In this document: one piece after another, positions 6,039-38,113 of the stretch
Numbering within the stretch: position 1 is the first letter of the stretch
How the letters are laid out: each line of letters begins with the position of its first letter
Assembly: GCA_045654845.1 (NCBI GenBank)
Contig: JAZOOB010000044.1
Location: 1 to 39,233 of the forward strand
Direction: 5' to 3'
Origin: Eubacteriales bacterium
GTDB lineage: Bacteria > Bacillota > Clostridia > Oscillospirales > CAG-272
Length of the DNA stretch: 39,233 nucleotides
Translations under genes and position numbers: made by a program
The notes under the pieces: model-generated
The model's database searches: none
The model's input: the letters and a program-made list of their open reading frames with translations, nothing else
Told to the model about the DNA's origin: nothing

Positions 6039-6062
6039 GTATTTTTTCAAGTCACCTTTTCG

Positions 6063-13199: not shown

Positions 13200-13227
13200 A
13201 AAAGAATGATATAGAGGATTACGCAAA

Positions 13228-19317: not shown

Positions 19318-19489
19318 AATTTTTTCGTCACTTTTGACAACAGAAAACGAAAAAATCTGACTTTTGTTAGTACAGAATGACGATTTTTGAGAAAAAAACA
19401 AAAAAATAGAACAATAGTATTCGGTTTTGTGGTAGAATATACGCATAATAAATCCATTTAATTATAATAAGATGAAAGAGGATAGAATA

Positions 19490-20812: not shown

Positions 20813-20822
20813 TAAGAGAAGC

Positions 20823-20841
20823 AAGAGGAATTCCTCTTTTT
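20823..20841 (+). terminator. Weak candidate terminator after lysC
   Basis: AAGAGG-aatt-CCTCTT followed by TTT. The stem is short. Confidence 0.35.
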
Positions 20842-20852
20842 GTCGAAAACTA

Positions 20853-20881
20853 TTGACAAGAAAAAAGGTATAGAGTATAAT
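20853..20881 (+). promoter_or_regulatory. Sigma-A consensus promoter for the lysine-riboswitch leader
   Basis: TTGACA, 17-bp spacer, TATAAT. Confidence 0.75.
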
Positions 20882-20885
20882 GTTT

Positions 20886-21119
20886 TATAAGAGATAGAGG
20901 CGCACTCTTGCGATGAGTACCGTATATAAAAGGCTGCCGAGGCTGTACGGGAAGGGCGCAAGTGCCGAAGTGGATGCGGTGGCTCGCATTTCGCTGGCAA
21001 TACAGAGAATATCTGTCTTGCTGTCGCAAAGTTTTTTTGCGGAGTGCTATCCTTTGCATTACCGTTCATATTTCTTTATTATGGACTTTTGCGAGGTAGC
21101 GACGCTGCCTCGCTTTTTC
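20886..21119 (+). promoter_or_regulatory. Lysine riboswitch (L-box) with terminator expression platform
   Basis: ATAGAGGCGC...GAGTA...GGGAAGGGCGCAAGTGCCGAAG...CTGG...GCTGTC parallels the B. subtilis lysC leader core (GATAGAGGTGC...AGAGTA...GCCGAAG...GCTGG...GCTGTC). The terminator GCGAGG-N11-CCTCGC plus T5 lies at 21091-21118, just before dapA. Confidence 0.85.
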
Positions 21120-21145
21120 ATAATAATAATCGAAGGAGATAGAAA

Positions 21146-22036: not shown

Positions 22037-22045
22037 TAAGAAAAG

Positions 22046-22069
22046 GAAAAAGCCCTCTCGGGCTTTTTC
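22046..22069 (+). terminator. Hairpin between dapA and dapB (possible partial terminator or processing site)
   Basis: GAAAAAGCCC-tctc-GGGCTTTTTC. The U-tract is largely inside the stem. Confidence 0.45.
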
Positions 22070-22109
22070 GGTGTTTTTAAAATAAGGAAGAAGTATAAAA
22101 GAGGACGAA

Positions 22110-22856
22110 ATGATAAAAGTATTGCTTAATGGATATAACGGTCATATGGGCGAAGAAGTGCGCCTATTGACAAAAAACGGATATAGAGATATAATTATTT
22201 CGGCGGGAGTAGACGTAAATGCGCGCGGCGACGAAGAGGTTTTCTGCGCTAAAGATTTTTCTTCGGCTCATACCGACGTCGACTGTATAGTAGACTTTTC
22301 ACACCACGTTTGCACGAAGGCATTACTCGACTTTGCAAAGAAGGAAAAGCTACCCGTAGTCTTGGCTACAACAGGACAGACCGAGGATGAACTCTCGGCT
22401 ATATACGAGGCAGCAAAGGAAATTCCCGTATTCTTTTCCGCTAATATGTCCTTTGGCGTGGCACTGCTCGTCGAGCTTGCCAAAAAGACGGCGGCAGCTA
22501 TGCCCGACGCGGATATTGAGATAATAGAAACTCATCATATAAGAAAGATCGATGCACCGAGCGGAACGGCTAAATTGCTTTTCGACGAAATAAAAAAGGT
22601 GCGCCCCTCTGCCTTCGCAGTAAACGGAAGAGAGGGACACGCGAAAAGAGAAAAGGACGAAATAGGAATCCATTCTCTTCGAATGGGAAACGTGGTCGGC
22701 ATTCACGAGGTGCTTGTGTCCACACCGAGCCAGACTATAACCTTAAAGCACGAGGCGCATAGCAGAGCTCTCTTTGCAGAGGGTGCGCTCGTTGCCGCAG
22801 AATTCCTTTGCTCTAAGGGCGCAGGCCTTTACAGCATGAAGGACCTTTTGAACTGA
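22110..22856 (+). CDS. dapB: 4-hydroxy-tetrahydrodipicolinate reductase
   Basis: NGYNGHMG Rossmann N-terminus and E(T)HHxxKxDAPSGTA (EIIETHHIRKIDAPSGTA). Confidence 0.88.
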   Translation: MIKVLLNGYNGHMGEEVRLLTKNGYRDIIISAGVDVNARGDEEVFCAKDFSSAHTDVDCIVDFSHHVCTKALLDFAKKEKLPVVLATTGQTEDELSAIYEAAKEIPVFFSANMSFGVALLVELAKKTAAAMPDADIEIIETHHIRKIDAPSGTAKLLFDEIKKVRPSAFAVNGREGHAKREKDEIGIHSLRMGNVVGIHEVLVSTPSQTITLKHEAHSRALFAEGALVAAEFLCSKGAGLYSMKDLLN

Positions 22857-22900
22857 TATAACTTTATGGGGAACACCCCACAAAAAGAGGAAGCATTACT

Positions 22901-23878
22901 ATGAAAATAGCTATATACGGATACGGAAATTTGGGAAAGGGAGTTGAGCTTGCTATATCCAAGGAAAAGGATATGGAGCTTTTCGGCGTATTTACCCGAC
23001 GCGACAAGAACAGTGTGAAAACGATAACGGGCGCGAAGGTTTTTTCGGTATCCGAGCTTGACGAATACAAGGACGAAATAGACGTAATCATAATATGCGG
23101 CGGAAGTGCCACCGACCTTCCCGAAATGACGCCTTCGCTCGCAAAAGCTTTTAACGTAGTGGACAGCTTTGATACACACGCGAAAATTCCCGCGCACTTT
23201 GAAAACGTAGATAAAAGCGCGACGCAGAGCGGTCACGTAGCCCTCATTTCTTCGGGCTGGGACCCCGGTATGTTTTCGATTATGCGACTTTACTCTTCTG
23301 CTATCCTGCCCGACGGCAAGGATTATACCTTCTGGGGCAGAGGAGTGAGCCAAGGACATTCCGACGCGATAAGAAGAATAGACGGCGTGCTTGACGCAAG
23401 ACAGTATACAGTACCGATAGACTCTGCTATGAGCGCGGTAAGAAGCGGCGAATGCCCCACTCTTTCTGTCCGCGAAAAGCATAAAAGAGAATGCTACGTG
23501 GTAGCAGAGGATGGCGCAGACAAGGCAAAAATAGAAAATGAAATAAAAACTATGCCTAACTATTTCGCAGATTACGACACGACAGTCGAGTTTATCTCGA
23601 AAGAGGAGATGGAGAAAAACCACAAGGGCATTTTCCACGGCGGAAACGTCATAAGGACGGGAAAGACGGGTATAAACGGAGAAAATACTCACGTAATCGA
23701 GTATAGCTTGAAATTGGACTCTAACCCCGAATTTACCGCAAGCGTGCTTGTTTCGTATGCGCGCGCAGTATATAAAATGCATAAAAGAGGGGAGATTGGC
23801 TGTAAGACAGTGTTTGACGTCGCGCCTGCAGACCTTTCACCGCTTTCTGCAGAGGAGCTTAGAAAAAATCTGCTTTAA
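22901..23878 (+). CDS. ddh: meso-Diaminopimelate D-dehydrogenase
   Basis: 325 aa. MKIAIYGYGNLGKGVE N-terminus, SSGWDPGMFS and WGRGVSQGHSDA motifs typical of Ddh. Confidence 0.85.
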   Translation: MKIAIYGYGNLGKGVELAISKEKDMELFGVFTRRDKNSVKTITGAKVFSVSELDEYKDEIDVIIICGGSATDLPEMTPSLAKAFNVVDSFDTHAKIPAHFENVDKSATQSGHVALISSGWDPGMFSIMRLYSSAILPDGKDYTFWGRGVSQGHSDAIRRIDGVLDARQYTVPIDSAMSAVRSGECPTLSVREKHKRECYVVAEDGADKAKIENEIKTMPNYFADYDTTVEFISKEEMEKNHKGIFHGGNVIRTGKTGINGENTHVIEYSLKLDSNPEFTASVLVSYARAVYKMHKRGEIGCKTVFDVAPADLSPLSAEELRKNLL

Positions 23879-23902
23879 GTAAAACAAAAAGGATTTTTTA
23901 AT

Positions 23903-25216
23903 ATGTACGAAAGAGATTTAATCTGCGACAATTTAAAGGTGTCGGATGACGGAACGCTTTATTTTGCGGGCTTTAACACCACCTATCTCGCAGAGAAATA
24001 TAAAACCCCCGTCTATCTTATGGACGAACAAAAAATAAGAGAAAATTGCAGGACCTATCTCTCTGCTGTCGCCGAGGCTTTCGGTGAAAACGGACAGGTG
24101 CTATATGCGTCGAAGGCGGCTTCCTTTAAGCGTCTTTACGAGATAATGCGCGAAGAGGGTATGGGTATCGACGTCGTTTCCGTGGGTGAGATATATACTG
24201 CAACAAAAGCAGACTTTCCTATGGAAAGGGCATATTTCCACTCGAACAACAAGACCGACGAGGATATTGAGTACGCAATAGAGCGTGGCGTCGGCTATTT
24301 TGTAGTCGATAACGAAGAGGAATTGTACGCTATCGAAAGAATAGCGAAGGAAAAGAATATAAAGCAGAAGGTGCTTTTGCGAATCACCCCCGGTATAGAC
24401 CCTCACACCTACGAGGCAATAGCTACGGGAAAGGTGGATTCCAAATTCGGCTCGGCAATAGAGACAGGACAGGCAGATAAGATAACAGAGCTTGCACTTT
24501 CTTTAGAAAACGTAAAGCTTTCCGGCTATCACTGTCACGTCGGCTCGCAGGTGTTTGATGCAGAGGTATATATAAGCACCGCGTCCGTAATGCTCGAATT
24601 CGTTTCTCACATAGAAAAGACCTACGGCTATCACGCAGAGGAATTGGATATAGGCGGCGGTTTTGGCGTTCGCTATATATATTCCCAGCCGAAAATTGAT
24701 ATAAGAGAAAACATTCTCACTGTCGGCGCATTTATGAAAAAGAAGGCAGAAGAGCTCGGAATCTCGCTTCCGAAGATTTCCTTTGAGCCTGGTCGAAGCA
24801 TAGTTGCAGACGCGGGACTCACCCTCTACACCGTAGGCACGGTGAAGAAGATCCCCGAATATAAAAACTACGTTTCGGTCGACGGAGGAATGACAGACAA
24901 TATAAGATTTGCACTTTATTCTGCGCCTTATACCGTTTTCCTTTCAAACAGAATGAATGCAGACAGAGATATGATAGCCTCGCTTGTCGGTAGATGCTGT
25001 GAAAGTGGGGATATAATACAGGAAAACGTGGAGTTCCCGTCGGACGTAAAGCGCGGAGATATAGTCGCTTGTCTTACAACGGGCGCGTACCACTATTCTA
25101 TGGCGTCTAACTATAACAGATTAGGAAAGCCCCCTGTCGTTATGCTGACAAAGGGTGGCTCTTACGTGGCGGTAAAGAGACAGACAGTCGAGGACATAGC
25201 CGCACAAGATATATAA
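23903..25216 (+). CDS. lysA: Diaminopimelate decarboxylase
   Basis: PLP-binding YASKA, HCHVGSQ, GGGFGV, EPGRSIVA and CESGD motifs. Confidence 0.9.
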   Translation: MYERDLICDNLKVSDDGTLYFAGFNTTYLAEKYKTPVYLMDEQKIRENCRTYLSAVAEAFGENGQVLYASKAASFKRLYEIMREEGMGIDVVSVGEIYTATKADFPMERAYFHSNNKTDEDIEYAIERGVGYFVVDNEEELYAIERIAKEKNIKQKVLLRITPGIDPHTYEAIATGKVDSKFGSAIETGQADKITELALSLENVKLSGYHCHVGSQVFDAEVYISTASVMLEFVSHIEKTYGYHAEELDIGGGFGVRYIYSQPKIDIRENILTVGAFMKKKAEELGISLPKISFEPGRSIVADAGLTLYTVGTVKKIPEYKNYVSVDGGMTDNIRFALYSAPYTVFLSNRMNADRDMIASLVGRCCESGDIIQENVEFPSDVKRGDIVACLTTGAYHYSMASNYNRLGKPPVVMLTKGGSYVAVKRQTVEDIAAQDI

Positions 25217-25234: not shown

Positions 25235-26080
25235 ATGAAAACAGTAATAGGAATTGACGTAGGCGGAACTACTACGAAGATAGTCGGATTTCGCTACGAC
25301 GACAAAAAGAAACCTATACTTGTAGAGCCTCAGTTCGTACGCGCGACAGATCCCGTCACCTCAGCGTACGGTGCATTCGGACGCTTCACTATGGAAAACG
25401 ATATAAAGCTCGAAAAGATAGACAGAGCTATGATAACGGGCGCAGGCGCGTCTGCCATAGAGAAGCCTATTTATTCGGTAGAGCATGAGAAGGTGAGCGA
25501 ATTCGACTGTATAGGCAGAGGAGGACTTTACCTTTCGGGACTCGACCGCGCTATCGTCGTCAGTATGGGCACGGGTACGGCTATCGTCTATGCGGAAAAG
25601 CGCGAATCCGACATAAAAACCGAGTACCTCGGCGGTACGGGTGTCGGAGGCGGCACTATGATAGGCCTTACGAGAAAAATACTCGGTGTCGATAACGTAG
25701 AGCATATCGAGCAGCTTTCACGCGAAGGAAATCTCGATAACGTAGACTTAAGAATTAAAGATATAGCAGGCAAGCAGTACGGTGATATGGACGCGACTCT
25801 CACCGCGTCGAATTTCGGAAAGCTTTCCGACCTCGCATCGAAAAACGATATCGCGCTCGGCGTCGTAAATATGGTAGCTGAGACTGTCGGTATGATGGCT
25901 ATATTCGCGGCGCGTGGCTTCGACGTTACCGACATAGTTCTTACGGGAAATCTCACCACCATCAGCGCGGTAAGAGAGAGAATTCTCAGCATGAACGACA
26001 GCTTTGACGTGAACTTTATCATTCCCGAAAAGGCACAGTACGCGACGGTAATAGGCGCAGGCCTTAACGGACTTAAATAA
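25235..26080 (+). CDS. coaW: Type II pantothenate kinase (CoaW-like, ASKHA fold)
   Basis: IGIDVGGTTTKIV, GGTGVGGGTMIGL, TLTASNFG and a YATVIGAG tail align by eye with S. aureus CoaW (GIDAGGTLIKIV, GGIGTGGGMIQGL, DLTAANFG, FSGAIGA). Confidence 0.65.
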   Translation: MKTVIGIDVGGTTTKIVGFRYDDKKKPILVEPQFVRATDPVTSAYGAFGRFTMENDIKLEKIDRAMITGAGASAIEKPIYSVEHEKVSEFDCIGRGGLYLSGLDRAIVVSMGTGTAIVYAEKRESDIKTEYLGGTGVGGGTMIGLTRKILGVDNVEHIEQLSREGNLDNVDLRIKDIAGKQYGDMDATLTASNFGKLSDLASKNDIALGVVNMVAETVGMMAIFAARGFDVTDIVLTGNLTTISAVRERILSMNDSFDVNFIIPEKAQYATVIGAGLNGLK

Positions 26081-28428: not shown

Positions 28429-28457
28429 TTGACAAAATTGAAATACTGTGGTATACT
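28429..28457 (+). promoter_or_regulatory. Sigma-A promoter (extended -10) for T-box leader 1
   Basis: TTGACA, 17-bp spacer ending in TGTGG, TATACT. Confidence 0.7.
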
Positions 28458-28505
28458 ACCCACTGTAATTGTGGAAGTAGTTTATTTTCCATAAAACTCA
28501 ATAAA

Positions 28506-28757
28506 GGCTATGATAAAGACGGTGACCCTTACAGTGCGGCACAGAGAAACGGCGGTTGGTGAAAGCCGTAGCGCAAGAGGAGTTTACCTATCACTTTTGA
28601 GCCGGGAGCCCGAAAAATGCAGTAAGGCTTCACGAGAAGCGCAGCGTCAGTGCGTAGGAGTTGTTGGTCTCCGTGAGTGGCGACAAGGTCGCAATTTGAG
28701 TGGTACCGCGAGTGTATTTTCACCCGTCTCAAAGAATTTACTTTGAGGCGGTTTTTT
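28506..28757 (+). promoter_or_regulatory. T-box riboswitch leader 1; specifier read as AUC (Ile)
   Basis: Stem I K-turn halves GGC-UAU-GA (28506-28513) and GA-GCC (28599-28603). AGAGA bulge at 28543-28547. Distal loop GGUUGGUGAAAG. Specifier AUC at 28590-28592 followed by A. T-box sequence AATTTGAGTGGTACCGCG at 28693-28710. Terminator CCGTCTCAAAG-aattta-CTTTGAGGCGG plus T6 at 28724-28757, whose 5' arm can alternatively pair with the T-box TTTGAG. Confidence 0.88.
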
Positions 28758-28814
28758 ATTTGACCTGCTTCAAGGACAGTTGGATACCGAAAAACGGCAA
28801 AACAGGAGGTTACT

Positions 28815-31079
28815 ATGTCAAAAGAAACGAAGAATAAGCTTTTAGAGGTCGCGCAGCGTATAAAGGAAATGCGAGAGATAGACGGCATTTCCGTCGAAGA
28901 AATGGCGCGCAAGACCGAGGTTAAATTAGAAGAATATTTAGAGTATGAGGCAGCAAAAAAGGATTTCCCCTTTACCTTTATACATAAATGTGCGCTTGCG
29001 TTCGGTATAGGAATTACCGACCTTCTCGAAGGACAGAGTGCATCGCTTTCCTCTTATACCGTAACGCGCAAGGGCGACGGTCAGCAGACAGCGAAGGAGG
29101 ACGGCATCGAGATAACGAACTTAGCGCCCCTTTTCAGAAAGAAGATAGCAGAGCCCTATTGGGTAAAATATGAATATGACGAGAAGCTTCAAGACCAGCC
29201 TATAACCCTTGCTACCCACTCGGGACAGGAGTTTGACCTTATAATGAAGGGACGCTTAAAGGTGCAGATAGGCGACCACGTGGAATATCTTGAAGAGGGC
29301 GACAGTATCTACTATAACAGTGCGACGCCTCACGGAATGGTAGCCGTTGGCGGTGAGGACTGTCTTTTCGTCGCAGTCGTCTTGCCGGGAGATTCTACCT
29401 CGGAAACAGTGACGAGAGCCACACTTTCTAAAAACACCGAAAAGACCGAGCTTGTAAGCTCGAGCTTTATAAAGACCGAAGAGGACGAAAACGGAACTCT
29501 TACGAAAATAGATTTCGAAAATGAGGATAATTTCAACTTTGCATTCGACATAGTCGACGAGATAGCGAAGAAGAATCCCTCGAAGCTCGCTATGCTTCAC
29601 ATCGATAAAAACGGAGTAGAGCGTCGCTTCACCTTCCGCGATATGAAGCGCGCGTCTAATATGACGGCAAACTATTTTAAATCGCTCGGCATTAAGAAGG
29701 GCGACAAGGTAATGCTCGTTTTAAAGCGTCATTACCAGTTCTGGTTTGCGATCCTCGGACTTCACAAGCTCGGCGCCGTCGCTATCCCTGCGACCAATCT
29801 TTTGCAGGAGCACGACTTCGACTATCGCTTCAAGGCGGGTGAGGTCAGCGCTATCGTATGTACAGCAGACGGAGACGTCGCGCGTCAGGTAGAGCTCGCA
29901 GAAAAGAACGGACACACCTTAAAGCATAAGATACTTGTCGGTGGCAAGAGAGAGGGCTGGCACGATTATAACGAGGAATACTCTATGTATAGTGCCCACT
30001 TCTACCGAGACGAGAACACCGCTTGCGGAAACGATCCCTTGCTTATGTTCTTTACGTCGGGCACGACGGGTTATCCAAAGATAGCCGTACACAATCACAA
30101 ATATCCCTTGGGACATTACATAACCGCGAAATATTGGCACGGAGTACATGAAAACGGACTTCATTTCACGATTTCCGAGACCGGCTGGGGTAAAGCCCTT
30201 TGGGGTAAGCTCTACGGACAGTGGCTCTGCGAGGGTGCGGTGTTCACCTACGACTTCGACCGCTTTAACGCAGCGGAGATACTTCCGATGTTCGCAAAGT
30301 ATAATATAACTACCTTCTGCGCACCCCCCACTATGCTCAGAATGCTCGTAAAAGAGGACATCTCGCAGTACGACCTTTCCTCTATCAAGCATATGACCAC
30401 GGCAGGCGAGGCGCTTAATCCCGAGGTATTCCGTCAATTCCAGCAGACGACAGGTCTTTCTATTATGGAGGGCTTCGGACAGACCGAAATGACGCTTGCT
30501 ATCGCAAACCTTATGGGTAGCACCTGTAAGCTCGGCTCTATGGGTAAGGCAGTACCGCTTTACGACATAAAGCTTCTCGACCCCGACGGAAACGAGGTCG
30601 CCCCCGGACAGACGGGAGAAATCGTTATAAGAACCGACGAAAAGATACCCTGCGGACTTTTCTCCGGCTATTACGGAGACAAGGCGAAGACCGACGAGGC
30701 TTGGTACGACGGATATTACCATACCGGTGATACCGCTTGGCGCGACGAGGACGGCTTCTTCTTCTATGTAGGTCGTGCAGACGACGTAATCAAGTCGTCG
30801 GGCTACCGTATCGGTCCGTTTGAAATAGAGAGTGTAATTATGGAGCTTCCTTACGTGCTTGAATGTGGAGTTTCCGCTGCACCCGACGAGGTAAGAGGTC
30901 AGGTGGTAAAGGCGAGCGTCGTGCTCGTCAAGGGCGTAGAGCCGACAGAAGAGCTTAAAAAGGATATTCAGAATTACGTCAAGGAGCATACTGCCCCCTA
31001 TAAGTATCCGAGAATAGTCGAGTTCCGAACCGAGCTTCCCAAGACTATAAGCGGAAAGATACAAAGAAACAAGCTCTGA
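28815..31079 (+). CDS. Fusion protein: N-terminal XRE HTH + cupin, C-terminal AMP-forming (medium/short-chain) acyl-CoA ligase; 754 aa
   Basis: HTH (LLEVAQRIKEMREIDGISVEEMARKT). Cupin (THSGQEFDLIMKGRLKVQIGDHVEYLEEGDSIYYNSATPHG). Adenylate-forming motifs FFTSGTTGYPK, YHTGDTAWRDEDGFFFYVGRADDVIKSSGYRIGPFEIE and PKTISGKIQR. RBS AGGAGG. Confidence 0.85.
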   Translation: MSKETKNKLLEVAQRIKEMREIDGISVEEMARKTEVKLEEYLEYEAAKKDFPFTFIHKCALAFGIGITDLLEGQSASLSSYTVTRKGDGQQTAKEDGIEITNLAPLFRKKIAEPYWVKYEYDEKLQDQPITLATHSGQEFDLIMKGRLKVQIGDHVEYLEEGDSIYYNSATPHGMVAVGGEDCLFVAVVLPGDSTSETVTRATLSKNTEKTELVSSSFIKTEEDENGTLTKIDFENEDNFNFAFDIVDEIAKKNPSKLAMLHIDKNGVERRFTFRDMKRASNMTANYFKSLGIKKGDKVMLVLKRHYQFWFAILGLHKLGAVAIPATNLLQEHDFDYRFKAGEVSAIVCTADGDVARQVELAEKNGHTLKHKILVGGKREGWHDYNEEYSMYSAHFYRDENTACGNDPLLMFFTSGTTGYPKIAVHNHKYPLGHYITAKYWHGVHENGLHFTISETGWGKALWGKLYGQWLCEGAVFTYDFDRFNAAEILPMFAKYNITTFCAPPTMLRMLVKEDISQYDLSSIKHMTTAGEALNPEVFRQFQQTTGLSIMEGFGQTEMTLAIANLMGSTCKLGSMGKAVPLYDIKLLDPDGNEVAPGQTGEIVIRTDEKIPCGLFSGYYGDKAKTDEAWYDGYYHTGDTAWRDEDGFFFYVGRADDVIKSSGYRIGPFEIESVIMELPYVLECGVSAAPDEVRGQVVKASVVLVKGVEPTEELKKDIQNYVKEHTAPYKYPRIVEFRTELPKTISGKIQRNKL

Positions 31080-31123
31080 TAAAAGGGAAAAGCATAAATT
31101 TTCGCTTTTTTGACAAAAAGATA

Positions 31124-31152
31124 TTGACAAATGCTTTGAGAAATGATAAAAT
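31124..31152 (+). promoter_or_regulatory. Sigma-A promoter for T-box leader 2
   Basis: TTGACA, 17-bp spacer, TAAAAT. Confidence 0.6.
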
Positions 31153-31163
31153 AACCGCATAAA

Positions 31164-31421
31164 AGCTTTGACGAAGAGGACGAAGGCTTGCGTTTTTGCA
31201 GAGAGACGGGATTGCTGTGAACCGTTAAAACAGAACCTTACGTTGTAACTTCCGAGCTGAGAGGAAGAAAGAGAAATTGAGTAGACCCTCTCCGAAAAAC
31301 GTAGCGTTAGTACGGAAAAGGTTGATAGACCTTGAGTGGCGACGGAGTCGCAATTTGAGTGGTACCGCGGGTTAGTTTTTACGGCTCGTCTCAAAGTATT
31401 ATCTTTGGGACGAGCTTTTTT
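31164..31421 (+). promoter_or_regulatory. T-box riboswitch leader 2; specifier read as GUA (Val)
   Basis: K-turn halves AGC-UUU-GA (31164-31171) and GA-GCU (31254-31258). AGAGAG bulge at about 31199-31204. Specifier GUA at 31245-31247 followed by A. F-box-like GCGTTAGTA. T-box AATTTGAGTGGTACCGCG at 31352-31369. Terminator GCTCGTCTCAAAG-tattat-CTTTGGGACGAGC plus T6 at 31384-31421. Confidence 0.88.
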
Positions 31422-31443
31422 GTCCTAAAAAGGAGAAAACGAA

Positions 31444-33729
31444 ATGGAAAAAATAACTGCTCTTGATCTTAAAATTCAAGAGATGGCTAATCGAATAAAG
31501 GAGCTTCGCGAGATTCAGGGACTCAGTGTTTCTGAAATGGCTATTAAAACGAACGTGTCTGAGGTCGAGTACCTTGCCTGTGAAAACGGACAGTCCGACT
31601 TAAACTTCGCGTTCATTTATCGCTGCGCGCAGGCTTTTGGCGTCGACGTCACCGATATTATCGAGGGTAAGAGCCCGACGCTTAAATCCTACACGCTCAC
31701 AAGAGCAGGTGCAGGACAGAGAATAGAGGAAGCGCACGGAATGACCTATTTCAACCTTGCACCTTCCTTTAAAAACAGAATTGCAGAGCCTCTTTTTGTA
31801 CGCAGCAGATACAATCCCGACTCTCAGAACAAGGATATTGAGCTGACCACACACGTAGGTCAGGAGTGCGATATCGTAGTAGAGGGAAGACTGAAGGTAC
31901 AGATAGGCGAGCATCAGGAGATACTCGGCCCCGGCGATAGCATTTACTACGACTCTTCGACGCCTCACGGTATGATAGCCGTAGACGGACAGGACTGTGC
32001 ATTCTACGCCTTCGTGCTTAACCCCACAGGCGAGGACGTCCCCGAATTTACTCATCAGAAGAGAACGGTCGTTATAAAGGCGAAAAAGGACGAGGGCGAA
32101 AGAGTATATAAGCGCTTTATCGAAACCGAGGAAAACGAAAACGGAACGCCTACCTCGATAAAGTTCAAGAATATAGACAAATTCAATTTTGCATACGATA
32201 TATTAGACGAGATAGCGAAAAAAGACCCCGACAAGCTTGCGCTTTTACATATATCAAACGATAAAAAGGAAAGTCGCTTCAGCTTTTCGGATATTAAAAA
32301 GTATTCCTGCCGCGCGGCGAACTATTTCCGTTCACTCGGTATCAAGCGCGGAGACAAGGTAATGCTCGTTTTGGGCAGACACTATCAGTTCTGGTTTGCT
32401 ATGCTCGGTCTTAACAGAATAGGCGCGATAGGAATTCCCGCGATGAATCAGTTGCTCGATCACGACTTCGAGTACCGCTTCAACAAGGCGGGTGTAAGCG
32501 CAATTATATGTACAGCGAAGGGCGCTGTCACCGAGCAGGTAGACATTGCGGCGAAGAAATGCCCGCAGCTTTTACATAAGATAATAGTTGGTGGCGAGCG
32601 CGAGGGCTGGCGCAACTTTGACGAGGAATGCGCACTCTTCAGTACTCACTTTGAAAGAACAGAGAATACGGCAGGCGGAGACGACACGATGCTGATGTTC
32701 TTCACCTCGGGTACGACGGGTTATCCCAAGATAGCCGCACACAATTACAAATATGCACTCGGACACTTCCATACAGCGAAGTATTGGCATAACGTAGATC
32801 CCGACGGACTTCACTTCACGATTTCCGACACAGGCTGGGCGAAGGCTATGTGGGGTAAATTCTACGGTCAGTGGCTCTGCGAGAGTGCGACGTTCGTATA
32901 CGACTTTGACCGCTTTAACGCGAGCGACATTCTTCCTATGTTCGCAAAATATAATATAACGACCTTCTGCGCGCCCCCCACGATGCTCAGAATGCTTATA
33001 AAAGAGGATATTTCGAAATACGACCTTTCCTCTGTCAAGCATATGACGACAGCGGGCGAAGCGCTCAACCCCGAGGTCTACCGTCAGTTCGAGCAGGCGA
33101 CGGGCTTGCAGATACTCGAGGGCTTCGGACAGTCGGAAAGCACGATGATGATAGGAAATATGACGGGCGCGCCGCATAAGATCGGCTCTATGGGTAAGCC
33201 TGCACCTATCTATGATATTGAGCTTATTGATCCCGAAGGAAATCCCGTTCCCGTCGGTGAAACGGGTGAAATCGTCGTAAATATTAAAGAAGGCTCGCCT
33301 TGTGGCTTGTTTACCGAATATTATGGCGATCCCGATAAGACGCTGGAGGCGCGACACGACGGATATTACCACACAGGCGATACCGCTTGGCGCGATGAGG
33401 ACGGATTCTTCTGGTACGTAGGTAGAGTGGTCGACGTAATCAAGTCGTCGGGCTACCGCATAGGTCCTTTTGAAATAGAGAGCGTAATTATGGAGCTTCC
33501 TTACGTACTCGAGTGTGGAGTTTCTGCCGCACCCGACGAGGTAAGAGGTCAGGTCGTAAAGGCGAGTATCGTGCTTGTAAACGGTACAGAGCCGACAGAG
33601 GAGCTGAAAAAGGAAATTCAGGAATACGTAAAGACGCACACCGCGCCCTATAAGTATCCGAGAATAGTAATCTTCCGTGACTCGCTTCCCAAGACCGCGA
33701 GTGGAAAGATACAGCGCAATCTCTTGTAA
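31444..33729 (+). CDS. Paralogous fusion protein: XRE HTH + cupin + AMP-forming acyl-CoA ligase; 761 aa
   Basis: Same architecture as 28815..31079. Long identical peptide runs (MFFTSGTTGYPKIA, MFAKYNITTFCAPPTMLRML, VIKSSGYRIGPFEIESVIMELPYVLECGVSAAPDEVRGQVVKAS). RBS AGGAG. Confidence 0.85.
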   Translation: MEKITALDLKIQEMANRIKELREIQGLSVSEMAIKTNVSEVEYLACENGQSDLNFAFIYRCAQAFGVDVTDIIEGKSPTLKSYTLTRAGAGQRIEEAHGMTYFNLAPSFKNRIAEPLFVRSRYNPDSQNKDIELTTHVGQECDIVVEGRLKVQIGEHQEILGPGDSIYYDSSTPHGMIAVDGQDCAFYAFVLNPTGEDVPEFTHQKRTVVIKAKKDEGERVYKRFIETEENENGTPTSIKFKNIDKFNFAYDILDEIAKKDPDKLALLHISNDKKESRFSFSDIKKYSCRAANYFRSLGIKRGDKVMLVLGRHYQFWFAMLGLNRIGAIGIPAMNQLLDHDFEYRFNKAGVSAIICTAKGAVTEQVDIAAKKCPQLLHKIIVGGEREGWRNFDEECALFSTHFERTENTAGGDDTMLMFFTSGTTGYPKIAAHNYKYALGHFHTAKYWHNVDPDGLHFTISDTGWAKAMWGKFYGQWLCESATFVYDFDRFNASDILPMFAKYNITTFCAPPTMLRMLIKEDISKYDLSSVKHMTTAGEALNPEVYRQFEQATGLQILEGFGQSESTMMIGNMTGAPHKIGSMGKPAPIYDIELIDPEGNPVPVGETGEIVVNIKEGSPCGLFTEYYGDPDKTLEARHDGYYHTGDTAWRDEDGFFWYVGRVVDVIKSSGYRIGPFEIESVIMELPYVLECGVSAAPDEVRGQVVKASIVLVNGTEPTEELKKEIQEYVKTHTAPYKYPRIVIFRDSLPKTASGKIQRNLL

Positions 33730-33738
33730 GGATAAAAA

Positions 33739-34395
33739 ATGAAGGATAAAAGAATTACCATACTGTCGGGACATTACGGCAGTGGAAAAACGAATATAGC
33801 GGTAAATATCGCACTCGACCTGAAAAAAAGGCACGAGAAGGTGGCGGTCGCCGACATAGATATAGTAAATCCCTATTTCAGAACCAAGGATAGCGAGGAG
33901 CTTTTTAAAAGAGAGGGAATAAGGCTTATCTGCTCGGAATACGCAAACACAAACGTCGATATTCCCGCACTACCGCAAGAAATGTACGCGGTGACAGACG
34001 ACAAGTCGCTTTATGCAGTGCTTGACGTAGGAGGAGATGAACGAGGCGCTCTCGCGCTCGGACGAATTTCCCCCGCTATCGCAAAGGAAGACGACTACGA
34101 GATGATATACGTGGTGAACTTCTACCGCCCGTTGACACAGGACGTAGACAGCGCTATCGAGGTCATGCGCGAAATAGAATACGCTTGTAAACTAAAGTTT
34201 ACTTCGATAATCAACAACTCAAATCTGGGGGCAGAGACCGATTCGGAGGATATTATAAAATCTCTTTCGAAGGCAGAAGCGCTTTCAGAAAAAACGGGAC
34301 TTCCGCTTCTTTATACGACGGTGAAGAAAATGACACCCGAGCTTGAAGGCAGAGAAGAGGATTTTCGAGCTATTTCATTACAGAAACATATGTAA
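33739..34395 (+). CDS. Uncharacterised P-loop NTPase (SIMIBI/G3E-like), 218 aa
   Basis: Walker A GHYGSGKT, a Walker-B/switch-like VLDVGGDERG, and IINNSNLG where G3E GTPases carry NKxD. The start lies 9 nt after the stop of the upstream ligase. Confidence 0.6.
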   Translation: MKDKRITILSGHYGSGKTNIAVNIALDLKKRHEKVAVADIDIVNPYFRTKDSEELFKREGIRLICSEYANTNVDIPALPQEMYAVTDDKSLYAVLDVGGDERGALALGRISPAIAKEDDYEMIYVVNFYRPLTQDVDSAIEVMREIEYACKLKFTSIINNSNLGAETDSEDIIKSLSKAEALSEKTGLPLLYTTVKKMTPELEGREEDFRAISLQKHM

Positions 34396-34407
34396 AGGAG
34401 ATATAAA

Positions 34408-34614
34408 ATGGCAAAGCTTACGTTTAAAACCGACAAGTGCAAGGGCTGCGGTCTTTGTGTCGGAGTTTGTCCTAAGGGCGTCCTTGCTATTGCAGAGGAC
34501 AAAATCAATGCGAAGGGGCATCACCCCGTCGTAGCAGTAAAAGAAGAGGCGTGCATAGGCTGTGCATTCTGCGCTACTATGTGTCCTGACTGTATTATCA
34601 AGGTAGAGAGGTGA
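34408..34614 (+). CDS. 2x[4Fe-4S] ferredoxin-type delta subunit of 2-oxoacid:ferredoxin oxidoreductase
   Basis: 68 aa with two CxxCxxCxxxCP motifs (CKGCGLCVGVCP, CIGCAFCATMCP). Confidence 0.85.
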   Translation: MAKLTFKTDKCKGCGLCVGVCPKGVLAIAEDKINAKGHHPVVAVKEEACIGCAFCATMCPDCIIKVER

Positions 34615-34620
34615 GAAAAG

Positions 34621-35685
34621 ATGGCAGATAAGGTTTTAATGAAGGGTAACGAAGCGATAGCAGAGGCTGCTATAATCGCAGGTTGCCGTCACTATTTCGG
34701 ATATCCTATTACACCCCAGACGGAAATTGCCGCTTATATGGCGAAGAGAATGCCTAAAATCGGTGGTATATTCCTTCAGGCAGAGAGCGAAGTAGCCGCT
34801 ATAAATATGGTTTACGGTGTTTCGGCTACCGGTAAGAGAGTTATGACCTCTTCGTCGAGCCCCGGAATTTCGCTTAAGGGAGAGGGTATTTCCTATCTCG
34901 CAGGCGCAGACCTTCCCGCACTTATAGTAAACGTACAGCGCGGAGGCCCCGGTCTTGGCGGTATTCAGCCTTCCCAGTCCGACTATTTCCAGGCGACCAA
35001 GGGTGGTGCGCACGGTGACTTCCATATGATAGTTCTTGCACCTGCATCGGTACAGGAAATGGCGGAGCTTACCGTACACGGCTTCGACCTTGCAGATAAG
35101 TATCGCGTCACCTCTATGATTTTGGCAGACGGTACTATGGGTCAGATGATGGAGCCTGTTTCTCTTGATTTCAAGACGGCAGAGCCTGTCGAAAAGCCTT
35201 GGGCGACCACGGGTACTAATATGCAGAGAAAGCATAACGTAGTAAACTCGCTCTTCTTAAAGCCCGAGCAGCTTGAACAGACGAACTTCGAGCGTTACGA
35301 GAGATATGAGCAGATAAAGAAGAACGAGGCTATGTACGAGGAATATATGATGGACGACGCGGAAATCTGCGTTGTAGCCTTCGGTATTGCAGCCCGCGTT
35401 TCCAAGAATGCGATAAATGAGGCAAGAGCGAAGGGAATCAAGGTAGGACTTATCAGACCTATCACTCTCTGGCCCTTCCCCGAAAAGCCTTTTGAAGAGG
35501 CAGCAAAGAAGGTTAAATCCTTCATTTCCGTAGAGCTTTCTATGGGACAGATGATAGAAGACGTTCGTCTTGCAACGAAGGATGCAAAGCCGGTTACCCT
35601 TTGTAACCGTTCAGGCGGTATGATACCCTCACCCGAGCAGGTACTCGCCGCAATAGAAGAAGCAAACGAAAAGGAGGGCAAATAA
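34621..35685 (+). CDS. 2-oxoacid:ferredoxin oxidoreductase, alpha-type subunit (VorB/KorA-like)
   Basis: [32 protein letters not shown]-terminus typical of the OFOR alpha subunit; 354 aa. Confidence 0.85.
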
Positions 35686-35686
35686 G

Positions 35687-36433
35687 ATGAGTGTAGTATT
35701 TGACAAGCCTCATTCCTTGGCAGATCTTCCTCTGCACTACTGCCCCGGCTGTACTCACGGTATCGTTCACCGTCTTGTAGCCGAGGTTATCGACGAGCTT
35801 GGCATCGAGGGAAAGACCATAGGTATCGCCCCCGTTGGATGCTCGGTTATGGCATACGTTTACTTTAACTGCGATATGATAGAAGCGGCTCACGGACGTG
35901 CGCCTGCTGTTGCGGCGGGTGTTAAGCGCTCATTGCCCGACAGCGTAGTATTTACCTATCAGGGCGACGGCGACCTCGCATCTATCGGTATGGCAGAGAC
36001 CGTACACAGTGCGGCAAGAAACGAAAATATCACCGTTATCTTTATAAACAATGCAATTTACGGTATGACGGGCGGACAGATGGCACCTACCTCGCTTCCC
36101 GGTCAGGTCACCCAGACCTCTCCCTACGGACGTGACGTAAACCACTGCGGTTTTCCTATCAAGGTCTGCGAGATGCTCTCTCAGCTTGACGGTCCCGAAT
36201 ATCTTGAGCGTGTAGCCGTAAACAACGTAAAGAACGTAAAGAACGCGAAAAAGGCGATAAAGAAAGCGTTTGAAAATCAGGTAAACGGAAAGGGCTTCTC
36301 ACTCGTTGAGGTTATTTCCTCTTGTCCTACCAACTGGGGTATGACACCGCAAAAGGCGCTTGAATGGATCGACGAAAAAATGATTCCTTATTATCCTCTC
36401 GGTGTATATAAGGATAGAAGCGAAAATAAGTGA
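35687..36433 (+). CDS. 2-oxoacid:ferredoxin oxidoreductase, TPP-binding beta subunit
   Basis: HYCPGCTHG cluster ligands and the TPP motif [14 protein letters not shown]...[11 protein letters not shown]. Confidence 0.85.
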
Positions 36434-36447
36434 GAGGAGAAGAAAAG

Positions 36448-36984
36448 ATGAGTACAGTACAGTATCTTATAGCAGGCTTTGGCGGACAGGGTATTCTGTT
36501 TGCAGGTAAGTTCCTTGCATATAAAGGCTTGAATATGGACAAAAACGTAAGCTGGCTTCCTTCCTACGGCCCCGAAATGCGTGGCGGTACGGCGAGCTGC
36601 AGCGTTATTCTCGGCGACGAGCCCGTAGGCTCGCCCATCGTATCGAAGCCCGACGTTTTGATAGCGATGAACCTTCCTTCTCTCGACAAATACGAGGATA
36701 CGGTAGCAGAAGGCGGCACTATCTACGTAGACTCTACCCTTATCGAGCGTAAGGTAAAGAGAACCGACGTAAAGGTACACTATATCCCTGCGACCAAGAT
36801 TGCAGACGATAACAAAACACCTACCCTTGCCAATATGGTAATTATGGGTAAGGTGCTCGCAGAAAACGGTGAGTTCGACGACGAAGAGGCAGTTCTTGCC
36901 GCGCTTAAGAAGGTAATTTCCGCGAAGCGTGCAGATATGCTCGACGTGAACCTCGGCGCACTCCGTCTTGGAAAGAATTATTAA
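36448..36984 (+). CDS. 2-oxoacid:ferredoxin oxidoreductase, gamma subunit
   Basis: [14 protein letters not shown] and YGPEMRGG motifs. I prefer the ATG at 36448 (GAGGAG upstream) to the GTG at 36430. Confidence 0.85.
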
Positions 36985-36996
36985 GAGGTGGATAAA

Positions 36997-38058
36997 ATGG
37001 AAATTAAAATCACAAAGAATTTAAATCCCGGTGTAAAGCCCGAATCCTCTAAGCTCGGCTTCGGTAAGTATTTCACCGACCATATGTTCATTATGGACTA
37101 CACAGAGGGAAAAGGCTGGCACGACGCGAGAATCGTACCCTTTGGCCCCCTTCAGATTCACCCTGCCTGCACCGCGCTTCACTACGGCGCAGAGATATTT
37201 GAGGGACTCAAGGCATATAGAAGAAAAGACGGAAAGGTTCAGCTTTTCCGCCCCATTGAGAACATTCGCAGAATGAACCGTTCGGCAGAGCGTCTTTGCC
37301 TGCCCACCATTCCCGAGGACCTCGCTATGCAGGTTCTCACCGAGTTCGTTGCATTCGAGCAGGAATGGACCCCCAGTGAAGAGGGAACCTCTCTTTACAT
37401 TCGTCCCTTTATGTTCGGTAATGATGAAACTCTCGGTGTGCATTCCGTAAAGCACGCAAGCTACGTAATCATAACCTCCCCCGTTGGAAGCTACTATGCA
37501 GAGGGCATCAACCCCGTAAAGATTATGATAGAAGCAGACGACGTAAGAGCAGTACGCGGCGGTACGGGTGAAGCTAAGTGTGGCGGTAACTATGCGGCAA
37601 GTACACGCGCAGGTCAGAAGGCAGAACAGCAGGGCTACGCTCAGGTTCTCTGGCTCGATGGCGTAGAGCGCAAGTATATCGAAGAAGTAGGCGCTATGAA
37701 CGTAATGTTCAAGATTGACGGCGAGGTCGTAACTCCCGCGCTCACAGGCTCAATTCTTCCCGGTATTACGAGAAAATCCTGTGTAGAGCTTCTTACAAAG
37801 GAAGGCTACAAGGTAAGCGAGAGAAGACTCAGCATCGACGAGCTTGAAAAGGCACTCGAGGACGGCAAGCTTGAAGAGGCTTGGGGCTGCGGAACTGCGG
37901 CAGTTATTTCCCCTATCGGCACTCTTTCCTATAAGGGCAAGGTGTACGAGGTAAACGGCGGCAAGATAGGCGAGGTAACTCAGCACCTTTACGATACCCT
38001 CACCGGCATTCAGTGGGGTAAGATCGAAGATAAGTTCTCTTGGACCGTTCTTCTTTAA
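36997..38058 (+). CDS. ilvE: Branched-chain amino acid aminotransferase
   Basis: Fold-type IV PLP enzyme: FGKYFTDHMF, HYGAEIFEGLKAYR, GTGEAKCGGNYAAS and GILPGITR. I prefer the ATG at 36997 (AGAGGTGG upstream) to the GTG at 36988. Confidence 0.88.
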   Translation: MEIKITKNLNPGVKPESSKLGFGKYFTDHMFIMDYTEGKGWHDARIVPFGPLQIHPACTALHYGAEIFEGLKAYRRKDGKVQLFRPIENIRRMNRSAERLCLPTIPEDLAMQVLTEFVAFEQEWTPSEEGTSLYIRPFMFGNDETLGVHSVKHASYVIITSPVGSYYAEGINPVKIMIEADDVRAVRGGTGEAKCGGNYAASTRAGQKAEQQGYAQVLWLDGVERKYIEEVGAMNVMFKIDGEVVTPALTGSILPGITRKSCVELLTKEGYKVSERRLSIDELEKALEDGKLEEAWGCGTAAVISPIGTLSYKGKVYEVNGGKIGEVTQHLYDTLTGIQWGKIEDKFSWTVLL

Positions 38059-38080
38059 TCTTAAAAAACAAAAAATATTC

Positions 38081-38113
38081 AGTGGCACGCTTTCAAAAGC
38101 GTGCCACTTTTTC
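38081..38113 (+). terminator. Strong intrinsic terminator ending the T-box 2 operon
   Basis: AGTGGCACGC-tttcaaaa-GCGTGCCACT plus T5. Confidence 0.85.

Follow-up and report, generated by a model that had tools for sequence, protein, structure and literature searches.

Paired isoleucine and valine T-box leaders over a gene module predicted to convert branched short-chain fatty acids to isoleucine and valine in a Eubacteriales bacterium

Why should two T-box leaders stand in tandem, each before one of two paralogous acyl-CoA ligases, the second of which runs on into a 2-oxoacid:ferredoxin oxidoreductase and a branched-chain aminotransferase? We looked at this question in a 39,233 nt stretch of DNA (the window) from a Eubacteriales bacterium, an uncultured gut or rumen Clostridium, where all parts of the module lie on the + strand. 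Labelling work of the 1960s-1980s by Allison, Bryant, Robinson and Peel reportedly showed that rumen and gut anaerobes make valine, isoleucine and leucine from isobutyrate, 2-methylbutyrate and isovalerate; these classical studies are said to have defined the physiology of the pathway and not its genes or regulation. The locus probably represents a two-unit, tRNA-gated module through which exogenous branched short-chain fatty acids are converted to Ile and Val by reductive carboxylation. Its predicted chemistry is identical to that of the classical pathway (the acid is activated to its acyl-CoA, carboxylated to the 2-oxoacid with CO2 and reduced ferredoxin, and then converted to the amino acid), and the habitat is common to both, the related loci coming from rumen and gut metagenome-assembled genomes (MAGs). 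The module would give a testable genetic basis to a pathway established by labelling work since the 1960s, and our literature search found no publication describing this operon.

Both ligase genes are preceded by a near-consensus sigma-70-type promoter with an extended -10 element. Promoter 1 (28429-28457) consists of TTGACA, a 17 nt spacer and TG-n-TATACT, and promoter 2 (31124-31152) of TTGACA, 17 nt and TG-n-TAAAAT, each matching 11 of 12 consensus positions besides the TG extension. Among relatives, a TTGACA plus extended -10 promoter lies upstream of 43 of 44 leaders of the first ligase (lig1), and promoter 2 is kept in 63 of 69 leaders of the second (lig2). The leaders themselves match the T-box model RF00230 over its full length, leader 1 (28501-28752) at 28501-28734 (85.6 bits, E 2.8e-19) and leader 2 (31159-31417) at 31159-31396 (83.3 bits, E 8.8e-19). 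The first-pass annotation of both as T-boxes is thereby borne out at E of about 1e-19, yet the scores fall just under the Rfam gathering score of 93, so that a default Rfam scan missed both. A permissive scan of the whole window recovered them at E 2e-17 and 9e-17 and revealed no other T-boxes. Each leader has a UGGU bulge complementary to the ACCA 3' end (28701-28704 and 31360-31363) and a terminator hairpin with a U-run after it (28724-28751, -16.9 kcal/mol, z = -6.4; 31383-31416, -22.9 kcal/mol, z = -8.1), the 5' arm of which can alternatively pair with the T-box sequence.

The specifier of leader 1, taken from the RF00230 alignment and the sequence, is AUC (Ile) at 28590-28592, and that of leader 2 is GUA (Val) at 31245-31247, in agreement with the two amino acids predicted earlier. 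Across 77 related sources the pairing of paralog and specifier is invariant, as the Ile specifier ATC was present in all 50 lig1 leaders and a Val specifier in all 74 lig2 leaders (72 GTA and 2 GTC). The riboswitch class and its logic, in which uncharged tRNA causes antitermination and turns on biosynthetic genes, are shared with other T-boxes of branched-chain amino acid genes, such as the one for Leu in the Bacillus subtilis ilv-leu operon. Unlike that operon, the module has two leaders with differing specifiers, matched to two ligase paralogs of predicted distinct substrate, and these would govern salvage and reductive carboxylation rather than the acetolactate pathway.

The module comprises two transcription units and is not a single operon. 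The Ile T-box controls ligase 1 (28815-31079) alone, and a terminator is absent between this gene and promoter 2. The intergenic gaps from ligase 2 to ilvE measure 1 to 15 nt, and the second unit is closed by an intrinsic terminator at 38081-38108 (12-bp stem, 7 G-C pairs, U-run), the sole strong + strand terminator downstream of 31416. The promoters, leaders, genes and terminator proposed in the first-pass annotation were all recovered at or near where it had placed them; its label of a self-contained operon was too strong, given the two units and a module that encodes neither a transporter nor a supply of reductant.

Ligase 1 (754 aa) and ligase 2 (31444-33729, 761 aa) are 66% identical and have the same three-part architecture of an acidic HTH-like domain, a 2-His-1-Glu cupin and a MacS-like AMP-forming acyl-CoA synthetase (AMP-binding and AMP-binding_C). 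From Pfam and NCBIfam, their similarity to MacS and their pocket residues, they are predicted to be a 2-methylbutyrate--CoA ligase and an isobutyrate--CoA ligase, respectively. The solved structure nearest to the ligase core is Methanosarcina MacS (3ETC; E 5e-182, ~55% identity over ~515 residues), an enzyme that favours 2-methylbutyrate as substrate (PMC10455477), and the core retains the equivalent of MacS Trp259 (in KYW), the YHTGD motif and the PKTxSGK lysine. This closeness, together with MbcS as the best NCBIfam family of both ligases, upholds the earlier analogy with the ACSM-type ligase MacS, which is however archaeal and lacks both the N-terminal HTH-like plus cupin module and T-box regulation. 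Among ~130 sequences only two positions of the catalytic domain separate the lig1 and lig2 paralogs, ligase 2 being set apart by Ala466 and Met469. One of the two, immediately following the conserved Trp in D-x-G-W, is Gly in lig1 and Ala in lig2 and aligns without gaps to Val310 in the acyl pocket of Salmonella Acs. Ligase 1 carries Gly459 here and MacS likewise has Gly, whereas ligase 2 has Ala in its place.

The match to MbcS raises the question of whether the ligases serve lipids instead. In Staphylococcus aureus this enzyme activates 2-methylbutyrate and isobutyrate, and isovalerate hardly, and the role shown for it is primer supply for fatty acids (PMC10026030). By analogy, the two ligases could scavenge isobutyrate and 2-methylbutyrate as branched acyl-CoA starters, induced by shortage of Val or Ile as the usual primer source, with the oxidoreductase and IlvE making the same primers oxidatively. 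Ruminococci, moreover, reportedly incorporate branched acids into lipids as well as into amino acids. We nevertheless regard this reading as unlikely, since the two ligases score only 438 and 430 bits against the MbcS equivalog cut-off of 850 bits, and since IlvE and an oxidatively working oxidoreductase, if co-induced in Val starvation, would break down the very amino acid that is in short supply. S. aureus MbcS also lacks the N-terminal module, and neither an oxidoreductase nor ilvE is linked to its gene.

Downstream of ligase 2 and a P-loop NTPase gene, the oxidoreductase is encoded in the order delta-alpha-beta-gamma, which fits VorB-type enzymes of family NF005507 except that beta and gamma are here separate genes. 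The delta subunit (34408-34614, 68 aa, Fer4 families) has two [4Fe-4S] motifs, and the alpha subunit (34621-35685, 354 aa, VorB-type) consists of POR_N and PFOR_II. The beta subunit (35687-36433, 248 aa, TPP_enzyme_C) binds thiamine diphosphate, and the gamma subunit (36449-36984) belongs to the POR family. The aminotransferase gene ilvE (36998-38058) follows, its product being a class IV enzyme above the equivalog cut-offs for branched-chain amino acid aminotransferases (NF009897, 481.6 versus 307 bits; TIGR01123, 401.9 versus 250 bits). The open reading frames of gamma and ilvE begin with GTG at 36430 and 36988; the ATG codons at 36449 and 36998, each behind a good ribosome-binding site (GAGAGGAG and AGAGGTGG, respectively), are the more likely starts.

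The alpha subunit matched all 352 positions of the NF005507 VorB model at 547 bits, the cut-off being 399, and VorB was the only subfamily that it passed in NCBIfam, as it lay far below the equivalog cut-offs for 2-oxoglutarate, pyruvate, indolepyruvate and oxalate enzymes (248 of the 579 bits needed for 2-oxoglutarate synthase alpha, 100 of 550 for PorA). The earlier assignment to the VOR type, rather than to 2-oxoglutarate- or pyruvate-specific enzymes, is thus supported, VorB being an annotation-level name and alpha the sole subunit to reach a named NCBIfam cut-off. The subfamily presumably takes in the anabolic VOR of Methanothermobacter, reportedly described by Tersteegen et al. in 1997. 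A different or broad substrate range (2-oxoglutarate, pyruvate or other 2-oxoacids), with the T-boxes and ilvE reflecting general amino-acid metabolism, would agree with the other subunits, since beta, gamma and delta met no NCBIfam equivalog cut-off and gave 2-oxoglutarate-type subunits as best partial matches. Among solved alpha structures, too, those of 2-oxoglutarate-type or undefined specificity (1YD7, 8YS5, 6N2N) are nearer by sequence than the pyruvate enzymes. The alpha scores make such a substrate range improbable, as does the invariable occurrence of the oxidoreductase together with leaders specific for Val and Ile, ligases of branched-acid type and ilvE.

With reductive carboxylation as the preferred reading, we infer substrate specificity and reductive direction from homology and context, and the route would run as follows. 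By the T-box mechanism, uncharged tRNA-Ile would permit readthrough into ligase 1, and uncharged tRNA-Val into the second unit, from ligase 2 through the NTPase and oxidoreductase genes to ilvE. Ligase 1, with the pocket Gly of MacS, would convert 2-methylbutyrate, ATP and CoA to 2-methylbutyryl-CoA, and ligase 2, with the pocket Ala, isobutyrate to isobutyryl-CoA. The VorB-type enzyme would carboxylate both thioesters with reduced ferredoxin and CO2 to 3-methyl-2-oxopentanoate and 2-oxoisovalerate, and IlvE would transaminate these to Ile and Val. As the ligases hydrolyse ATP to AMP, the overall conversion would be favourable. In contrast to the classical pathway, the module has no third, isovalerate-specific ligase, and leucine would derive from 2-oxoisovalerate via a LeuA-like enzyme, which in relatives is gated by a Leu T-box and adjacent to the module. 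Ile synthesis would also need the oxidoreductase and ilvE, both behind the Val T-box only, so that Ile starvation alone would not induce these two unless basal expression or another copy suffices. The specifiers, the MacS-like core, the VorB alpha subunit, the gene order and the biosynthetic context all favour the conversion of branched acids to Ile and Val as first proposed, and each computational check suggested in the first-pass annotation gave a favourable result.

The same enzymes could be read in the opposite direction, in a Stickland-type catabolism that draws energy from Val and Ile, with IlvE and the oxidoreductase turning them oxidatively into acyl-CoAs and the ligases in a side role. 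2-Oxoacid:ferredoxin oxidoreductases are reversible and are catabolic in many amino-acid fermenters. Such an enzyme works oxidatively on 2-ketoisovalerate in Clostridium thermocellum (PMC11365079). T-boxes, however, respond to uncharged cognate tRNA and turn genes on when its amino acid is scarce, an induction that would be senseless for a pathway degrading the same amino acid; the argument of the first-pass annotation from starvation control holds for the Ile and Val leaders. Further, AMP-forming ligases spend ATP and conserve no energy, and protein-family annotation found neither a phosphotransacylase plus kinase nor an ADP-forming synthetase or a CoA-transferase. The neighbourhood is biosynthetic as well: the window has lysC, metY and metA, and a Lys riboswitch with dapA/dapB/ddh/lysA. 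Altogether, we consider a catabolic role highly improbable.

Conservation of the locus bears on how the acyl-CoA is used. The order lig1-lig2-NTPase-delta-alpha-beta-gamma-ilvE, or a variant with ilvE moved forward, was determined in ~55 of 80 related loci, in ~55 species-level MAGs of gut and rumen Clostridia. The conserved partners are ilvE, genes of amino-acid biosynthesis and, downstream of ilvE in relatives, a Leu T-box and leuA-like gene; fab genes are not among them, which again argues against primer supply. In ~14 of the 80 loci, however, the ligase behind the Val T-box is on its own, no oxidoreductase lying within 8 kb, a point in favour of lipid primers, and the ligase there may use its acyl-CoA otherwise. 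The acyl-CoA pool may be in dual use, for lipids and amino acids.

The ligases owe their length to an N-terminal extension of ~240 aa (HTH-like plus Cupin_2 in Pfam) that was overlooked in the first-pass annotation. The His-x3-Glu...His triad of the cupin is invariant (132 of 132 sequences) and resembles the metal site of HppE-type cupins, and the HTH-like region, at a mean net charge of -5, is strongly acidic. In Foldseek, the two-domain fold matched XRE-cupin regulators (1Y9Q), HppE, HEPD and MPnS (E 1e-11 to 1e-7), all of which combine an HTH-like alpha-domain with a cupin; identity is only ~20%, and the differing orientation of the domains keeps the TM-scores low, at 0.33. What sets the ligase module apart from these proteins is its fusion to an adenylate-forming enzyme and the strong acidity of its HTH region. 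As the hosts are anaerobic, oxygenase chemistry is unlikely, and the HTH-like plus metal-cupin module is possibly an allosteric sensor.

The gene between ligase 2 and delta (33739-34395) encodes an orphan SIMIBI-class P-loop NTPase of 218 aa with a Walker A motif GHYGSGKTN and DxGGD motifs, identified by profile searches, AlphaFold2 and Foldseek. Its sequences have no conserved Cys. The AlphaFold2 model (pLDDT 86) was best matched in Foldseek by SRP GTPases and ATPase-type HypB (TM 0.52-0.60). The protein is possibly a maturation factor of the oxidoreductase, and its gene adjoins that of the delta subunit or a ligase in nearly all loci.

The region 28429-38113 on the plus strand carries all the elements that the first-pass annotation had described there, namely promoters, leaders, ligases, P-loop protein, oxidoreductase, ilvE and terminator, and these form two transcription units. 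The first consists of a near-consensus promoter with an extended -10 (28429-28457, +), T-box leader 1 (28501-28734, +) and ligase 1 of 754 aa. The second begins with another near-consensus, extended -10 promoter (31124-31152, +) and T-box leader 2 (31159-31396, +), followed by ligase 2 (761 aa), a P-loop protein of 218 aa, the delta-alpha-beta-gamma oxidoreductase and ilvE, with intergenic gaps of 1 to 15 nt from ligase 2 through ilvE, and is closed by a terminator at 38081-38108 (+). Both leaders matched the Rfam covariance model RF00230 over positions 1-219 of 219, taking in Stem I, Stem III and the antiterminator, with 85.6 bits (E 2.8e-19) for leader 1 and 83.3 bits (E 8.8e-19) for leader 2, which confirms their earlier identification as T-boxes. 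These scores are slightly lower than the gathering score of 93, at which Rfam reported no T-box in the window and only the lysine riboswitch elsewhere; the leaders were recovered at a permissive threshold, where they were the sole T-boxes of the whole window.

The hairpins and U-runs at the leader ends were stable, at -16.9 kcal/mol (z = -6.4) in leader 1 and -22.9 kcal/mol (z = -8.1) in leader 2. Reading of both leaders showed that each hairpin's 5' arm has an alternative partner in the conserved T-box sequence AAUUUGAGUGGUACCGCG: CGUCUCAAAG in the arm can anneal to UUUGAG, which lies upstream within the T-box sequence. By folding and reading together, the terminator and antiterminator helices are mutually exclusive in both. 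The two leaders also share AGUGGUACCGCG and a UGGU bulge, which would fit an A discriminator base in the tRNA; the window encodes no tRNA genes. As there is no terminator between ligase 1 and promoter 2, transcripts from promoter 1 run into the Val T-box. The oxidoreductase and ilvE stand behind the Val leader only, so that starvation for Ile alone would require basal expression or another copy.

The specifier, on the 3' side of the Stem I internal loop and taken as the triplet directly 5' of the specifier-loop closing stem (CUUU/CUUC) and the GAG half of the K-turn, was read from the Rfam alignments and the sequence as AUC-A (Ile) at 28590-28592 in leader 1 and as GUA-A (Val) at 31245-31247 in leader 2. 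We compared 80 loci from species-level genomes encoding the ligase, belonging to Acutalibacteraceae, Oscillospiraceae, Christensenellaceae, 'Ruminococcus sp.', Saccharofermentans and others, in which a profile derived from both leaders of the window served to locate further leaders, and specifiers were assigned by an anchored pattern and by eye. The codons were conserved across 124 leaders in total (77 sources for both paralogs together): ATC preceded ligase-1 orthologs in all 50 cases, and ligase-2 orthologs were preceded by GTA in 72 of 74 and by GTC in two. Some of these leaders carry C instead of a purine after the specifier codon, or a variant K-turn. In three test loci Rfam independently called T-boxes at the leader positions, with 76 to 123 bits.

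Two variations were seen around these leaders. In five loci (L034, L042, L043, L044 and L058) the gap between ligase 1 and ligase 2 is only 14 to 40 nt, which leaves no space for a second promoter and T-box, and both ligases would there be under one Ile-type leader (ATC in L043); the origin of the two-leader arrangement could be read from this natural variant. An AT palindrome, TTTTTT[C/G]AAAAAA, lies no more than ~30 nt ahead of the -35 element in 19 of 44 ligase-1 promoters and 6 of 69 ligase-2 promoters (loci including L028, L031, L013, L011, L069, L017 and L036) and may act as an UP element or bind a protein; promoter 1 of the window has only an A/T-rich stretch at this position.

Both ligases contain PF00501 (AMP-binding; 218 bits in ligase 1, 210 bits in ligase 2) and PF13193 (AMP-binding_C; 73 and 76 bits), and these domains together with the core motifs place them among MacS/ACSM-type AMP-forming acyl-CoA synthetases. 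Their nearest solved relative by far is the Methanosarcina ligase MacS (3ETC; E 5e-182, ~515 residues aligned), the alignment spanning residues 52-570 and including YHTGD and PKTxSGK. MacS prefers 2-methylbutyrate (PMC10455477). The best NCBIfam family for both was the methylbutyryl-CoA synthetase MbcS (NF047394), whose Staphylococcus aureus member activates 2-methylbutyrate and isobutyrate (PMC10026030); at 438 and 430 bits against a cut-off of 850 the ligases were rejected as members of this equivalog, which is all the same their closest named family.

When about 130 orthologs were compared, only ten positions cleanly separated the paralogs, eight in an N-terminal module and two in the catalytic domain within the motif D-[TS]-G-W-[G/A]-K-A-[L/M]-W-G-K. 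The catalytic pair is Gly and Leu in the Ile-gated paralog and Ala and Met in the Val-gated one. The Gly/Ala position, residue 459 of ligase 1 and 466 of ligase 2, is Gly in MacS. In a gap-free alignment it corresponds to Val310 of the Salmonella acetyl-CoA synthetase (motif and numbering confirmed on PDB entries), a residue that Ingram-Smith et al. reportedly named in 2006 among the four lining the acyl pocket. This substitution would give a larger pocket for a C5 acid in the Ile-gated ligase and a slightly smaller one for a C4 acid in the Val-gated ligase and, with the similarity to MacS and MbcS, suggests that both prefer branched C4/C5 acids.

Among the downstream products, the alpha subunit scored 547.3 bits with the VorB subfamily NF005507 (cut-off 399) and fell far under the cut-offs of the 2-oxoglutarate, pyruvate, indolepyruvate and oxalate enzymes, which supports its earlier assignment to the VOR (2-oxoisovalerate:ferredoxin oxidoreductase) type. 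The beta, gamma and delta subunits have the expected Pfam domains and reached no NCBIfam cut-off, their best partial matches being 2-oxoglutarate-type or generic subunits, and among solved structures alpha is closer to 2-oxoglutarate-type than to pyruvate enzymes, so that the VOR assignment draws its support from the subfamily model and the gene context. That the oxidoreductase acts on a different substrate appears very improbable in view of the VorB score of alpha and its invariant Ile, Val and ilvE context. The ilvE product was likewise confirmed by NF009897 (481.6 bits against 307) and TIGR01123 (401.9 against 250).

The P-loop protein is conserved beside the delta subunit or the ligase in related loci. 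Its sequence shows a canonical Walker A motif along with DxGGD, and ParA/Mrp models match it over the Walker A region only. In a comparison of the window protein with 61 orthologs no cysteine position was conserved. Its structure was modelled confidently (pLDDT 86), and the fold search returned SRP GTPases and ATPase-type HypB, a generic SIMIBI likeness (TM 0.52-0.60, identity <22%). We therefore rejected it both as a NifH-like ATP-driven electron donor for uphill carboxylation, since a conserved cysteine is missing and the fold matches are generic, and, for want of conserved cluster-ligating cysteines and with the same generic matches, as an Fe-S carrier of the Mrp/Nbp35/ApbC type. Other SIMIBI NTPases suggest, as the most plausible guess, a role in cofactor insertion or maturation of the oxidoreductase.

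T-boxes allow readthrough upon binding of the uncharged cognate tRNA, and as this mechanism is established for the family, the control steps of the module can be proposed as follows. Ile limitation would leave tRNA-Ile uncharged and cause readthrough of leader 1, and ligase 1 would convert 2-methylbutyrate to its CoA thioester; Val limitation would cause readthrough of leader 2 and expression of ligase 2, converting isobutyrate to isobutyryl-CoA, together with the NTPase, the oxidoreductase and IlvE. The oxidoreductase would carboxylate both thioesters with reduced ferredoxin and CO2, and IlvE would aminate the resulting 2-oxoacids to Ile and Val. We infer these enzyme steps from homology, from the residue difference in the pocket and from linkage of the genes, and their anabolic direction mainly from the control by starvation. 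A catabolic, Stickland-type module would use IlvE and the oxidoreductase for degradation; such a role conflicts with the T-box logic, with the ligases being of the AMP-forming kind and with the lack of energy-conserving enzymes, so that we give it almost no credence, in agreement with the first-pass annotation.

At >=70% identity, relatives of the ligase fusion number in the thousands in metagenomes from rumen and from the guts of humans and animals, where 'AMP-binding protein' or 'cupin domain-containing protein' is the only name they carry. The order lig1-lig2-NTPase-delta-alpha-beta-gamma-ilvE occurs in ~45 of the 80 loci and a variant with ilvE shifted ahead of the NTPase in ~10, and the Val-gated ligase stands alone in ~14. 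Such stand-alone ligases would fit a role in supplying branched-chain fatty acid primers, as MbcS does; this is an unlikely function for the module as a whole, as it agrees poorly with the co-induction of IlvE and oxidoreductase on starvation and with the biosynthetic gene linkage. It is possible that the acyl-CoA pool is used for both amino acids and lipid primers. Amino acid synthesis from branched acids is the reading that we retain, and the other genes of the window are also biosynthetic. The lysC gene (19472-20812; aspartate kinase with ACT domain), first of a gene run at 19472-25216, is separated by a lysine riboswitch (20887-21057, +; 100 bits, E 1e-25) from dapA-dapB-ddh-lysA, where ddh encodes diaminopimelate dehydrogenase, and the window further contains metY and metA, a pair that also adjoins the module in relatives. 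The window is a succession of riboswitch- or tRNA-controlled amino-acid biosynthesis units.

Leucine genes were found next to the module in part of the relatives. Several have a Leu T-box and then a LeuA-family synthase directly after ilvE, as in L009 (14675-16387) and L031 (9791-11481), where the T-box scores 123 bits and the synthase has ~460 aa, and T-box and synthase also follow ilvE in L001, L005, L017, L045 and L065. With 243 against 532 bits the synthase is well under the 2-isopropylmalate synthase equivalog cut-offs and so is a divergent family member. It would consume 2-oxoisovalerate, the predicted VOR product, and leucine formed in this way may be the reason for two ligases and not three. 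Certain Acutalibacteraceae loci have a third T-box, with the Leu codon CUC (83 bits by Rfam in L016), upstream of and divergent from the module on the minus strand (L007 4363-4630, L010 3479-3744 and L016 4576-4843). It controls two genes (in L016 at 627-4479, -), encoding a LeuA-family synthase of 462 aa and an 827-aa protein in which a xylose-isomerase-like TIM barrel (AP_endonuc_2) is fused to an AMP-binding ligase of only ~26% identity to the window ligases.

Both ligases carry ahead of their core an N-terminal module of ~240 aa that was absent from the first-pass annotation. Pfam reads it as an XRE-type HTH followed by Cupin_2, the domain order of XRE-cupin (PuuR-like) proteins, with HTH_19 at 32.6 bits in ligase 2 and 28.8 bits in ligase 1 (cut-off 30.2) and Cupin_2 at 42 and 41 bits (cut-off 27.2). 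Its structure was modelled with moderate quality (pLDDT 67 overall, 70-89 inside domains); the predicted fold best matched the XRE-cupin regulator 1Y9Q and also matched the enzymes HppE, HEPD and MPnS, whose alpha-domains do not bind DNA and whose cupins hold a 2-His-1-Glu metal site. His137, Glu141 and His175 are kept without exception in the 132 sequences compared. Over the family, net charge averages -5.1 in the HTH region and -2.9 in the recognition helix, which argues against DNA binding. A DNA-binding autorepressor, or BirA-like 'trigger enzyme', is weakened by this strongly acidic HTH region, by the fold matches to the non-DNA-binding alpha-domains, and by the sole recurrent promoter-proximal palindrome being present in a minority of loci and perhaps an UP element. 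As the HTH is acidic, the His/Glu/His residues are invariant and eight of the ten paralog-specific positions fall in this module, we favour the speculative view that this part of the protein does not bind DNA and instead senses ligands or acts allosterically in a metal-dependent manner, each paralog responding to a ligand of its own.

Branched short-chain fatty acids serve fibre-degrading rumen bacteria as growth factors and are abundant products of gut protein fermentation; that they are converted to amino acids is known from labelling studies going back to the 1960s. To our knowledge, the genes and the control of this conversion have scarcely been described. The branched-acid route goes unmentioned in a large study that reconstructed amino-acid biosynthesis in the gut from genomes (PMC9026213), and our full-text literature search found no account of the operon, which may be mentioned in comparative-genomics tables of T-boxes. 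None of the component classes is new, and the chemistry is decades old. Without an earlier description that we could find are the operon, the two T-boxes with specifiers matched to two ligase paralogs of predicted substrate specificity, the conserved orphan NTPase and the N-terminal metal-cupin module.

Taken jointly, it is somewhat short of an even chance that the module is the main, unannotated basis of Ile, Val and, via 2-oxoisovalerate, Leu synthesis from branched acids in many uncultured Clostridia of the gut and rumen (Acutalibacteraceae, Oscillospiraceae, Christensenellaceae) and that its N-terminal module is a new metal-dependent sensor. If so, genome-based calls of branched-chain amino acid auxotrophy would be systematically wrong in these three families, branched-acid cross-feeding would be a controlled nutritional link, and the sensor would set ligase activity by a paralog-specific ligand (amino acid, 2-oxoacid or acid) as a second control layer atop the T-box. 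The module offers a concrete, widely conserved and readily recognised gene set for a long-standing physiological observation, with a built-in prediction of a 2-methylbutyrate ligase under Ile control and, under Val control, an isobutyrate ligase together with VOR and IlvE, and makes the old question directly testable through enzymes, T-boxes and isotope tracing. Better prediction of auxotrophy and cross-feeding for uncultured Clostridia would follow, and the cysteine-free NTPase and the metal-cupin module are two conserved parts worth study.

Further features were observed elsewhere in the window. At 4587-6077 the two strands carry long ORFs that overlap each other (466 aa on the plus and 496 aa on the minus strand) and have no Pfam match. 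Genes for an asparagine synthase, a free-standing aminoacyl-tRNA editing protein (tRNA_edit) and a class II synthetase of Asp/Asn/Lys type stand in a row at 10746-12566 (+) and 12702-14622 (+), with no T-box upstream of them even at the permissive threshold. Between lysA and metY, at 25235-26080 (+) and a few kb upstream of the two CoA-consuming ligases, a 281-aa protein matches Fumble and BcrAD_BadFG (ASKHA) and is probably pantothenate kinase-like, of type II/III.
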